A stretch of 32,000 nucleotides of DNA from Promethearchaeota archaeon (GCA_048938295.1 JBHLMI010000025.1:1-32000); one strand, 5' to 3'. Numbered from the stretch's first letter, positions 5,438 through 16,791 are shown. Program-made: numbers and translations. Notes: a model not told the origin generated them from the sequence alone.

Positions 5438-6073
5438 ATGCCAAAACCAACCATTACCTTTCTCGGTAACTCGGGCTTTCTTCTTGAATACAAAAATTCG
5501 TCTCTGCTTATCGACCCGCAAAATAAAAAGTCTGGTGATCGAAAAGGTGACATCGTCTACTGCACCCACAACCATCCTGATCATGTTGGTGGAGTAAACG
5601 TCTTCATGGAGCAAAACCCGGTTGCCTTTCTAATCGGAAACATCGAGGTTGCAAAGAAATTCTCCAAGTGGACCCATCGCACGATAGTTGTCCACGAAGG
5701 CGAATTCATCCAACAGACCCCCTGGAATCTACGATTCATTCAGGCACCTCCTGGACTAACCAAAAGCAAAACAAATCTCGGAGTCATCATCCGAGCTGAT
5801 GATTTCACCTTCGGTCATGTCGGCAATGCAGTACAATTCAATGGCTTTGCAGGCGCGAAACTAGCTGTTCTTGCGGTTCCCATTTTTGGAGGCTTCACCG
5901 CTTCCTCAAAACGGACCATCGAAGAGTTGAAGAAATTCGACCCGCCCCTACCAATCATTGTACCCATGCATTGGGTCTACAGAAATCCCACAAAATTTTG
6001 TGAGCAGTTAAAACGCGAAATCCCTAAAGTGACCTGTCTTCTCCCGACAAAGAATGAAACCCTGCCTATCTAG
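5438..6073 (+). CDS. Metallo-beta-lactamase-fold protein (UPF0173/UlaG-like), partly degenerate metal site
   Basis: ITFLGNSGF, LLIDP, THNHPDHVGG (HxHxDH) and VPMHW motifs. Confidence 0.85.
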   Translation: MPKPTITFLGNSGFLLEYKNSSLLIDPQNKKSGDRKGDIVYCTHNHPDHVGGVNVFMEQNPVAFLIGNIEVAKKFSKWTHRTIVVHEGEFIQQTPWNLRFIQAPPGLTKSKTNLGVIIRADDFTFGHVGNAVQFNGFAGAKLAVLAVPIFGGFTASSKRTIEELKKFDPPLPIIVPMHWVYRNPTKFCEQLKREIPKVTCLLPTKNETLPI

Positions 6074-11021: not shown

Positions 11022-11294
11022 ATGTCAAAACCAGCAGTCAGTGCATTCCGCCAAGCTGTTTACAATGAAGCCAAGGCACTTAAGATTCCCATTGTGGATG
11101 AACGAGCAATTGACAAACTCGGTATCAATAAAGGCTCAGTCGGTGGAACGGTTGAAATGAGGTACCGTGATGGCGAGGAAACGAAGATCAAAACCTTTCT
11201 AGCGGTGGCTAAATACCATCATGCTCTCGTGATTTACAAGGATGAGATGTTCTACATCTTAGCCAATAACACGATTTGGCGTCTATCGACTTAG
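11022..11294 (+). CDS. Small soluble hypothetical protein
   Basis: 90-aa ORF with its own TATA-like box (TATATAT near 10959), a purine-rich SD region and a downstream terminator hairpin. Confidence 0.75.
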   Translation: MSKPAVSAFRQAVYNEAKALKIPIVDERAIDKLGINKGSVGGTVEMRYRDGEETKIKTFLAVAKYHHALVIYKDEMFYILANNTIWRLST

Positions 11295-11451: not shown

Positions 11452-12108
11452 TTAGCTCTCAAAGATTTCTTTGATTCGCTTGATTTCTGCCATCATTTCA
11501 TTACGCAAACCAGCAATCCCTGGAGCGGCAGCAACAGCGGCTGGAGCAGCAACTGGAGGAGGTGGACTTGTTGTACCTGCAGGCGGTGCGCTGGGTGCAG
11601 CAGCTGCGGGTTGAACAGCGGGCATTGCACTCGGAGGACCTGCAGGTGGGGCCTTTGGAGGACCAGCAGGTGGTGCACTAGGGGGTCCTCTTGGCGGTGC
11701 ACTCGGTGGACCCTTCGGTGGTATAGCAGTTGGAGGACCAGTAGGAATTGCGGTAGGGGCTGCGGTTGCTACAGCAGTGGCCATAGTGCCCTCTCCGAGA
11801 AGAATAGATTCAGCATCGTCACCTGGACCAGCAGTTGTGATGGCGGCCTCATCTCCTTCAAGAAAATCAAATAGTGCGTCAGTTGAGGGGCCTCCTGTAC
11901 TGGTTTCTGCTTCCATAAGTGGTGTGCTGGCAGCAGTCATCGGTGTGATTTGGGCACTCTTCAAATCGCTACGAATTTTACTAAGGCTGTTCTGAAACTC
12001 AGTGACCTCTTTTGCAACGGTATTTAATGCATCAGCTAAGTCGTTGACAGCTTTCGATAAAAATTCGGATACACGAATCAAAATGGCTTCCTTGTCTGAG
12101 CCTGACAT
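11452..12108 (-). CDS. Proline-rich protein: N-terminal coiled coil, acidic linker, GPPxAPPx repeats, C-terminal amphipathic helix
   Basis: 218-aa ORF with SD GGGGTG and TATA TTTATA upstream. The domain layout is read directly from the translation. Confidence 0.85.
   Translation of the reverse strand: MSGSDKEAILIRVSEFLSKAVNDLADALNTVAKEVTEFQNSLSKIRSDLKSAQITPMTAASTPLMEAETSTGGPSTDALFDFLEGDEAAITTAGPGDDAESILLGEGTMATAVATAAPTAIPTGPPTAIPPKGPPSAPPRGPPSAPPAGPPKAPPAGPPSAMPAVQPAAAAPSAPPAGTTSPPPPVAAPAAVAAAPGIAGLRNEMMAEIKRIKEIFES
11617..11739 (-). repeat. Intragenic tandem repeat of about 24 nt encoding G-P-P-x-A-P-P-x
   Basis: GPPTAIPPK/GPPSAPPR/GPPSAPPA/GPPKAPPA/GPPSAMPA (aa 124-164). Confidence 0.85.
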
Positions 12109-12227: not shown

Positions 12228-12683
12228 TTAAAGGGCTTTAGACGCTTTGAGGATTTCTCGATGATCGAAGGCAACTTGCTTCGGCATTTTCACAAAGACC
12301 TTGACTTCCAAAGCATCACTACTTGGTTCCATTGAACCACCCACCACTCGCGCATTGAAGGCAATACTCACAACATGTCCCCGGGGATCACGGGTTGGAT
12401 CCGAAAACACGCCTATTAACCCACTAGGTACTACCACAAGTCCAGTTTCCTCTTTGACCTCCCGAACTAGGGCTTCCTCAACAGTTTCACCGATTTCCAC
12501 TTTTCCTCCTGGTAGCGCCCAATATTTTTGGAAAGGCGGAAATCGGCGACGAACGAACACAACACCTTTTTTGGCTAGCTGAATGACTGCATCCACGGCA
12601 AGCACAGGTGATTTTTGCAGTGCAGCGTTCCAATCCGATGGTGACGTGAAATATACCTCCTCTCTTATGAGGTGCAGCTTCAA
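12228..12683 (-). CDS. Nudix hydrolase (ADP-ribose pyrophosphatase-like)
   Basis: Nudix box [23 protein letters not shown]; RDPRGH and AFDH motifs. Confidence 0.93.
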
Positions 12684-12723
12684 AAGCCTTAAAAGCCATT
12701 GGTACTACGCCACACCGACGACA

Positions 12724-13215
12724 ATGACGGTAGAATCTTGGCGCGAGCCGAAACCCACCATTGCGCAGCTTCGCAGACTGGTAGAGCGAATAAAATCCTA
12801 TGCACGGACCAGCCGATTCATGGGATATCTTTCAACTACCATTCTCACTATTCTGATGATCCAATTAGGCATCCTAGTGTACAGCTACTTCCTCCCAATT
12901 TTCTGGGGAACCTCATTATTTCTACCTGAATGGTTTTACTACGTGATGTTCATAACCTTTGCTTTATCCATGGTCATTTATGGCGTCACAGGATCCATCA
13001 ATGCCCGTTTGAACCGCTATATCATCGAATACAAGAAGATCGGGGTCGTCGTCCAACTGCGGTGCGAAGAATGCAACCGGACTAGCGAACGGGTCTGGGA
13101 AAAAGATGATTACATCTTCAAAAAGGAAGGCACCTGCGCTTGTGGTGGAAAGCAGTTCATCTCCCAGATGTATCTCATGCCACTTCCTTTAAAGAAGGAC
13201 GGAACTGACCTCTAA
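12724..13215 (+). CDS. 2-TM membrane protein with C-terminal zinc ribbon
   Basis: The ORF-track start at 12583 overlaps the Nudix gene, so ATG 12724 is preferred. Two TM segments, then CEEC...DYIFK...CAC. Confidence 0.75.
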   Translation: MTVESWREPKPTIAQLRRLVERIKSYARTSRFMGYLSTTILTILMIQLGILVYSYFLPIFWGTSLFLPEWFYYVMFITFALSMVIYGVTGSINARLNRYIIEYKKIGVVVQLRCEECNRTSERVWEKDDYIFKKEGTCACGGKQFISQMYLMPLPLKKDGTDL

Positions 13216-15935: not shown

Positions 15936-16116
15936 GGAAATTAGCCCTCCTGTTTCAGATGGTTTGAGGTCTACTGCTCTTTTTTCATAACTTATTCATT
16001 AATAGGCTGGTTGGCTCCTCTTCTCCCCTTTTTTAACTCGATGACTGTTCTAAAATGTAGTTTTTTGAACCTGTCTTACACTAATCCTTGTGAAGGATCA
16101 CAAAGGAGATTACAAA

Positions 16117-16791
16117 ATGACCATACGTCAAAAGATTAGGGAAACTTTACTCCGGATAAGTGGATACCTAGTTCCACTCGTTCAGCAGATTCCAACACTC
16201 GGTATCTATACCGGATTGATGACACTGCCTCTATTAGCTGTTCTTGCTATTCTTTTCACACAGTTTCCAATCAACATTGTTGGAATGGTTACCGAATTCA
16301 TTACCATGAATCTCATGTCGATTAGCGTTCTTGTTGCCAATCTAATAACATCTGCTGGGCTTTTACTGACAATTTATTCGGTCATCTACCTTCTACGCCA
16401 TAAAAAGGATGGATTGATTACCACAGGACCCTACCGGTTCATCCGCCATCCGCAATACACCGGATTTCTTCTAGTCACCTTGGGCCTTACCTTATTTAGT
16501 TACTGGTGGCTATCCAACACGTTTGGCATCGGTTGGCTCTCCAAGGAAGCAACTGTAGCTATATGGTTCATTCAACTGGGTATCTATGTGGCCCTAGCCC
16601 TGATTGAAGAATCTCACCTTTTGAAGACATTTGGTGAACACTACACCGACTACAAAAAAACCACATCTTTCTTCGTTCCAATTGGAAGAGTCAACCGGTT
16701 CGATATCCCGATCTCAATTGGAATTCTAAGCCTCCTCATGTTCTTGCTTATCCTCGTCCAATCAATCGGTAGTCCTTTCATATTTTCCTAA
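16117..16791 (+). CDS. Second ICMT/PEMT-family membrane methyltransferase
   Basis: LITTGPYRFIRHPQY, EE...FGEHY..Y motifs; multi-TM. ATG 16117 follows a GGAG SD (the ORF track starts at 16090). Confidence 0.85.
   Translation: MTIRQKIRETLLRISGYLVPLVQQIPTLGIYTGLMTLPLLAVLAILFTQFPINIVGMVTEFITMNLMSISVLVANLITSAGLLLTIYSVIYLLRHKKDGLITTGPYRFIRHPQYTGFLLVTLGLTLFSYWWLSNTFGIGWLSKEATVAIWFIQLGIYVALALIEESHLLKTFGEHYTDYKKTTSFFVPIGRVNRFDIPISIGILSLLMFLLILVQSIGSPFIFS

Follow-up and report, generated by a model that had tools for sequence, protein, structure and literature searches.

Asgard archaea build dynamic actin-based protrusions, and we know of no nucleation- or elongation-promoting factor of Asgard actin. 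The only regulators of this actin that have been named so far are profilins and gelsolins (PMC13716822). Does a small gene of a Promethearchaeota archaeon encode a factor of the missing kind? The gene lies on the minus strand of a 32,000-nucleotide stretch of DNA (GCA_048938295.1 JBHLMI010000025.1:1-32000; hereafter the window, on which positions are counted). An initial annotation had read its 218-amino acid (aa) product, here called P0001, as a candidate actin nucleation or elongation factor. We find that P0001 belongs to an undescribed family of small proteins, widespread in Asgard archaea, that end in a conserved, portable helix and probably act as multivalent adaptors.

The gene is real and strongly conserved. 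A word-indexed search returned 15 close homologues, all of which keep the four elements of the protein; their last 21 residues are almost invariant, which answers the check on helix conservation that the initial annotation had proposed. These homologues are unnamed or annotated as hypothetical, and four of them come from metagenome-assembled genomes of Promethearchaeota or Hermodarchaeota. A profile built on the family matched 221 of 400 Asgard genomes (E = 5.7e-92 for the gene itself). When the genome set is divided into family-level lineages (f-numbers, with f1 being the family of the window's genome), full-length matches occur in f1 (16 of 18 genomes), f15 to f21 and f26 to f28, including 118 of the 135 genomes of f20 and 13 of the 14 of f19. 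Furthermore, an RNA-library contig from a relative spans the gene in its 5' part, though not in its middle or 3' part; of the 21 differences listed for this contig, 14 are at third codon positions of the frame. Given the conservation among homologues, the spread of the profile and the third-position differences, this is more than a chance open reading frame (ORF). A search of 1.84 billion representatives retrieved 72 proteins, among which those from outside the family were either low-complexity proline matches or shared the tail only. A literature search that covered the motif strings and Asgard actin factors of the WH2, VASP or proline-rich kind turned up no description of the family.

All four elements (a heptad helix, an LFxxLxG motif, a proline arm and an LRxEM[LM]xE[LI]xR[LI]K helix) can be aligned between P0001 and 37 family members from several lineages. 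An AlphaFold2 (AF2) model made with this 38-sequence family alignment contains three helices that are not packed together, with the remainder disordered (pTM 0.27; Table 1). The hydrophobic residues of the first helix, as read from the sequence (L10, V13, L17, V21, L24, L28, V31, V35, F38, L42, I45 and L49), keep an unbroken 3-4 spacing, which is the canonical heptad pattern of a predicted coiled coil. Its conserved residues are R12, V13, F16, K19, L24, F38, S41, L42, K44, D48, L49 and K50 (alignment A1). Within the acidic-hydrophobic motif that follows, F80 and G85 are invariant among close homologues (A1). The family-wide form, AAxxLFxxLxG, is retained throughout the wide family and in its membrane-protein versions. 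A second short motif, AESILLGE, belongs to the subfamily of this lineage: A99, E100, I102, L103, L104 and G105 are nearly invariant in A1, and other lineages lack it. The proline arm carries five GPPxA(P/I/M)P repeats (aa 123-161) and one SPPPP (aa 182-186), with its prolines mainly arranged as PP doublets. The arm differs in length between homologues, and Tandem Repeats Finder gave no sign that its repeats arose by recent tandem duplication of DNA. A Pfam scan of P0001 returned no domain match. The parts named in the initial annotation are thus all present, namely the heptad-like helix, the acidic patch, the GPPxAPP-type repeats with SPPPP, and the C-terminal helix, whose core GLRNEMMAEIKRIKEIF (aa 200-216) we confirm at 11511-11461.

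Table 1. Positions in the window of the P0001 gene, its elements and nearby genes discussed in the text.
Feature	Position	Strand	Details
P0001 gene	11452..12108	minus	ATG start; 218 aa; stop codon included
N-terminal heptad coiled-coil helix, aa 3-51	11956..12102	minus	AF2 pLDDT >90; presumed oligomerization module
Acidic-hydrophobic motif DALFDFLEGDE, aa 77-87	11848..11880	minus	weak AF2 helix 76-83
Short motif AESILLGE, aa 99-106	11791..11814	minus	specific to the subfamily of the P0001 lineage
Disordered Pro/Ala-rich arm, aa 118-196	11521..11757	minus	AF2 pLDDT 47-68
C-terminal docking helix GIAGLRNEMMAEIKRIKEIFES, aa 197-218	11455..11520	minus	AF2 helix 198-217, pLDDT ~88
90-aa alpha/beta protein gene	11022..11294	plus	convergent neighbor of the P0001 gene; AF2 pLDDT 87.5
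210-aa ORF	12583..13215	plus	two or three predicted membrane helices; C-terminal CxxC...CxC zinc-ribbon-like end
ICMT/PEMT-family membrane methyltransferase gene	5438..6073		position assigned by synteny with L026 of the same genus
ICMT/PEMT-family membrane methyltransferase gene	16090..16791		position assigned by synteny with L026 of the same genus

In the end helix, L201, M205 and E208 do not vary in alignments of the whole family, and E204, R211 and K213 hardly do. Because this conserved face mixes hydrophobic with charged residues, it is what one would expect of a specific protein-docking peptide. The motif, [SG]LRxEM[LM]xE[LI]xR[LI][KR], is also portable and was found on several other architectures. 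Three polytopic membrane proteins (P0047, P0059 and P0082) end in it and also have a coiled coil, an SLFxxxLG motif and a proline arm; a protein with a transmembrane (TM) segment and a coiled coil terminates in it (P0039); and a TM-family-TIR protein carries it internally (P0021). A Ras/Roc-like GTPase (P0053) has two copies and a related zinc-ribbon protein (P0087) has three, in both cases with proline-rich linkers between them. Since the helix occurs on membrane proteins and in tandem on a GTPase, it behaves like a docking peptide for a common hub. P0001 differs from these carriers in being soluble and free-standing, and its subfamily has a helix variant of its own (EMMAEIKRIKEIFES) as well as the additional AESILLGE. 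The P0001 copy is the sole one that we detected in this genome by regular expression or hidden Markov model, and a profile search found no further copies in the 6.0-Mb closed genome G137. Against all sequences of the Protein Data Bank (PDB), the helix profile gave only chance-level rows, none of them a solved WH2, thymosin or VASP chain.

What might the hub be? One candidate is encoded next door. A gene for a 90-aa alpha/beta protein is the only neighbor of the family gene that is kept over four lineages and through changes of orientation. It adjoins the family gene in f1 (convergent), f15 (same strand, genome G123), f17 (convergent, genome G127) and f20 (mostly divergent, with both genes on the same strand in genus g43). 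By a hand tally within f20, the two genes lie within 500 bp of each other in 83 of 103 cases and within 3 kb in 9 more, and the remaining 11 are on other contigs. The phyletic range of the 90-aa gene (f1, f15 to f21, f26 and f27) mirrors that of the adaptor family. As this linkage has outlasted rearrangement in four lineages, it is the strongest functional association that we found. RNA-library contigs from three studies span the gene, and in one of these contigs all 18 of the 18 listed differences are at third codon positions. The protein has more than 500 homologues, every one unnamed or merely hypothetical. Its fold led to no nameable family, either with Foldseek against the PDB (best E 0.24) or in a wide VIA-align search (best Z 4.3), and AFDB clusters returned only the protein itself together with weak uncharacterized rows. 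The ESM Atlas yielded nothing usable for this protein or for the N-terminal 110 residues of P0001. As a candidate partner of P0001, the 90-aa protein is equally good as actin, and it is the better-conserved neighbor.

Several f20 genomes have a 90-aa gene that is about 30 nucleotides longer and contains one in-frame stop. This stop is TAG in nine genomes (G183:C13:239791-240087, G206:C26:19199-19495, G176:C20:12957-13250, G198:C327:3644-3940, G204:C4:206842-207135 and G180:C132:52838-53134, along with G245, G270 and G267), TGA in two (G230 and G271) and TAA in one (G205). Genomes G169 and G174 have a TGA inside a 90-aa gene of normal length. A small insertion, a split gene or read-through could each account for these stops.

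The other candidate is actin, and the host has it. The genome is that of an Asgard archaeon (2.5 Mb in 66 contigs, 91.6% complete), and its canonical actin is found in two pieces at contig ends (G000:C9:53228-53734 and G000:C18:11406-11822). The gene is interrupted where the two contigs end, so the assembly lacks its middle portion. The pieces are 98% identical to a full-length actin of the same genus, which in turn shares ~80% identity with other Asgard actins and ~60% with those of animals and plants. A profilin is also present (28 bits, above the Pfam cut-off). The initial annotation had deduced an Asgard host with both proteins, correctly, and because canonical actin is present, the idea of an actin partner does not fail for want of one. 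Two tandem, very distant actin-like genes were also observed in this genome (G000:C53:27220-29366; 113 to 119 bits to PF00022, 22 to 28% identical to actin). A crude regular-expression search of the genome for small WH2- or thymosin-like ORFs gave nothing convincing.

Gene order provides a link between the family and actin in f20. There, the family gene lies upstream of an actin-family gene, on the same strand, in 104 of the 111 genomes, spanning 13 genera, in which both genes are listed; in the remaining seven, the two are on different contigs. The actin-family gene matches PF00022 with 301 bits, and a median of 940 bp separates it from the P0001 homologue; this gap sometimes holds a PIG-L gene. 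Synteny on this scale is hard to dismiss entirely. In the same loci, a conserved 112-aa ORF without a Pfam family follows the actin gene on the same strand (L028:6219-6557, minus strand, with equivalents in L029, L031, L034 and L035). It may belong to one cluster made up of the 90-aa gene, the adaptor gene, the occasional PIG-L gene, the actin gene and the 112-aa gene itself.

A coiled coil, a flexible arm, a conserved and portable helix, a partner gene and an actin-paralogue link together fit a multivalent adaptor. On the reading that we tentatively prefer and consider quite possible, P0001 is an adaptor of the actin cytoskeleton whose end helix docks in the groove of an actin-family protein. 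The N-terminal heptad helix would bring several chains together in a coiled-coil oligomer. From this, each chain would extend a disordered arm that has a proline-rich stretch as well as one or two short hydrophobic-acidic motifs and is terminated by the 20-residue amphipathic docking helix. The clustered end helices would then dock into the hydrophobic groove of an actin-family protein, as arcadin-2 does on crenactin and as WH2 and thymosin helices do on actin, and might thereby influence polymerization. The proline arm may recruit profilin-actin, with GPPSAPPRGPPSAPP as a candidate profilin-binding peptide. Together, P0001 and the co-inherited 90-aa protein would form a scaffold of the actin cytoskeleton. 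A bolder version, which we consider unlikely, would make the family an archaeal counterpart of the Ena/VASP- or WASP-type assembly factors, with clustered WH2-like helices, proline arms that feed profilin-actin to filament ends, and the 90-aa protein as a dedicated regulator. If this version is true, the multivalent promotion of actin nucleation and elongation in Asgard archaea predates eukaryotes.

The closest analogue of P0001 would be arcadin-2 of Pyrobaculum, a protein of ~200 aa that is encoded beside crenactin and uses its 17 C-terminal residues to bind in the groove of actin (PMC5173319). Both are small archaeal proteins of about this length with a conserved C-terminal helix, and in both cases the gene can lie next to an actin-family gene, which for the P0001 family is true in f20 alone. 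Unlike P0001, arcadin-2 has neither a proline-rich arm nor a long N-terminal coiled coil, and its binding relies on a tryptophan that is missing from the end helix of P0001. Moreover, the P0001 gene adjoins no actin gene in this genome. The likeness would be one of function, and no sequence relationship is expected.

Several observations weigh against an actin partner. The actin gene linked to the family in f20 encodes a divergent paralogue, 41 to 43% identical to canonical actin, and the canonical gene of these genomes has a different location. This paralogue was not found in the genome of the window, and in f19, where it is present, it is 44 to 70 kb from the family gene or on a different contig. 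The linkage is thus confined to one family-level lineage, and shared ancestry could explain it. In its own genus, the P0001 gene is flanked by housekeeping genes (LysRS, HflX, NUDIX and AlaRS). Profilin recruitment meets a difficulty of its own, as Loki-type profilins lack polyproline binding and those of Heimdall and Thor bind only weakly (PMC8410842). To these points must be added the outcome of the profile searches. WH2 (PF02205) did not match the whole of P0001 at E values up to 1, nor did Pfam give a WH2 or VASP match at E values up to 10 for either C-terminal peptide (P0001:185-218 and P0016:205-241), although HMMER filters can lose very weak matches.

How, then, should the likeness to eukaryotic actin-binding helices be understood? 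The initial annotation had aligned the end helix with WH2 and Ena/VASP motifs and seen in the protein the design of a nucleation-promoting factor. Of this, the coiled coil, the proline region and the helix are real, but the coiled coil sits at the opposite end from that of VASP, and neither the protein nor its C-terminal peptides matched a WH2, VASP, EVH1 or FH2 profile. Some features do speak for the end helix as a true homologous WH2 or Ena/VASP motif that binds G- or F-actin, which would make P0001 an archaeal member of one of these families. M205, M206 and I209 give the WH2-type hydrophobic spacing at i, i+1 and i+4 (EMLxEL in the wide family; alignments A4 and A6), a proline-rich region lies upstream, and relatives carry tandem copies as in WH2 arrays. 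The R-N that precedes these hydrophobic residues presumably resembles that of some WH2 helices, which we take as a lead only. Ena/VASP proteins likewise join an oligomerizing coiled coil to a proline-rich region and a short amphipathic helix in a multivalent, flexible chain, and the WH2 proteins (WASP, WAVE, WIP, thymosin beta-4 and Spire) have an amphipathic helix, single or in tandem, often with a proline-rich region upstream. Yet a WH2 helix spans about 10 residues before an extended LKKT segment, whereas that of P0001 runs for about 20 residues to the C-terminus. No LKKT or LKKV follows it, and P0001 ends in IKEIFES; the initial annotation had itself cautioned that a canonical LKKT is missing and that the prolines are mostly doublets. 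Where other lineages have an LKK, it is part of the predicted helix (RLKKIM, with K, E, S or T at position 214), and its second basic residue is E in the P0001 lineage. Unlike Ena/VASP, P0001 shows no Pfam match to EVH1 or VASP_tetra, its sole long helix is N-terminal, it has one helix in place of GAB plus FAB, and it has GPPxAPP doublets rather than runs of at least five prolines. The formin arrangement does not apply either, as P0001 has no FH2 match and only 22 residues after its proline-rich region. With no profile or solved-chain match, no LKKT and a coiled coil at the opposite end, membership in the WH2 or Ena/VASP families is not supported, and we consider such homology highly improbable, more so than any other reading discussed here. 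On its sequence, P0001 would not be a WH2 or VASP protein by membership, but it may still work like one.

Docking on a hub other than actin is a serious possibility, and almost as likely as docking in the actin groove. The 90-aa protein is the most obvious such hub, with a GTPase or membrane-remodeling component as another option, and the end helix would serve to tether or cluster this partner; the f20 actin neighborhood would then be inherited gene order without functional meaning. The persistence of the 90-aa gene, set against an actin link restricted to f20, favors this idea. So does the strong divergence of both P0001 and the 90-aa protein in this lineage, to ~34 to 36% identity with other lineages, while canonical actin is still ~79% identical. 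The same helix is carried by membrane proteins, by a TIR protein and by a Ras-like GTPase, which points the same way, as does a Ras-family GTPase gene that is the immediate neighbor at locus L033. The contact with the 90-aa protein is nonetheless putative, the fold of that protein has no recognizable peptide-binding relative, and the f20 synteny with actin speaks for the other side. Membrane binding is improbable by comparison. P0001 could be a coiled-coil tether that connects the membrane with a partner of its N-terminal part, and its end helix a targeting helix like those of MinD, FtsA and MreB, given that this helix is amphipathic, forms the very C-terminus beyond a long flexible linker, is net basic in the version of the main family (LRDEMLKELKRLKKIMRG) and occurs on several membrane proteins. 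But the version of this lineage is not net basic, E204 and E208 are invariant or nearly so, polytopic carriers need no further anchor, and helices that target membranes can usually do with far less sequence conservation. As a MIM1-like motif, the helix could also recruit Vps4, a MIT-domain component of the Asgard ESCRT system, which would make P0001 an ESCRT accessory factor. MIM motifs sit C-terminally after proline-rich linkers, as this helix does, and by eye M205, I209, I212 and K213 fit the L..xL..LK part of the MIM1 consensus, (D/E)xxLxxRLxxL(K/R). This reading is very improbable, since the defining arginine position is taken by the invariant E208, no conserved ESCRT neighbor occurs in the loci examined, and Pfam detects no ESCRT-III-like domain in P0001.

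The orthologue of P0001 in the cultured Lokiarchaeon was located in the closed genome G137 (G137:C1:729367-730185; 271 aa, 26.8 kDa), which also encodes an orthologue of the 90-aa protein (G137:C1:466846-467106). In the tables of a Lokiactin coimmunoprecipitation (co-IP) and proteome study of L. ossiferum (PMC13716822; preprint 10.1101/2025.11.30.690169), neither molecular weight nor neighbors led us to a row consistent with this orthologue, which was expected near tags 00587-00627 on a scale anchored by the actin, gelsolin and MIPS genes. Several proteins that are significantly enriched in the L. ossiferum Lokiactin co-IP (Supplementary Table 2 of the same study) are absent from the identifiers of its Supplemental Table 3. 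One is GNAMCCOK_03085, of 4.41 kDa, with 87% coverage and a log2 ratio of 2.66. GNAMCCOK_02875 (9.51 kDa), GNAMCCOK_02393 (9.24 kDa), GNAMCCOK_04250 (20.6 kDa) and GNAMCCOK_04243 (27.4 kDa) are also enriched.

Two further features of the surroundings were noted. In this genus (L026), membrane methyltransferase genes of the ICMT/PEMT family are found a few kb from the adaptor gene, with putative counterparts in the window (Table 1), and one is directly downstream of the adaptor gene in an f19 genome (L033:8909-9526); this proximity may be a coincidence. The 210-aa ORF listed in Table 1 is conserved at the same place in the genus (L008 and L011) and has no significant Pfam match. As the ORF overlaps the NUDIX gene of the opposite strand at its 5' end, the real start is probably an internal one, at MTVE.

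Our analysis contributes the count of synteny with the actin paralogue, the absence of this paralogue from the lineage of the window, the 90-aa partner gene, and the lineage's own helix variant and AESILLGE motif. The P0001 family is conserved, single-copy and phylum-wide, and it makes a concrete and cheap target that comprises one peptide along with two small, soluble proteins. The family provides a testable candidate for the missing archaeal actin regulator, with actin binding as its putative activity. If P0001 does bind actin, it would supply a part that is so far missing from our view of the cytoskeleton before eukaryotes. If its partner is another protein, the family would represent a new docking-peptide system, reused on GTPases and on membrane proteins in the organisms most closely related to eukaryotes.
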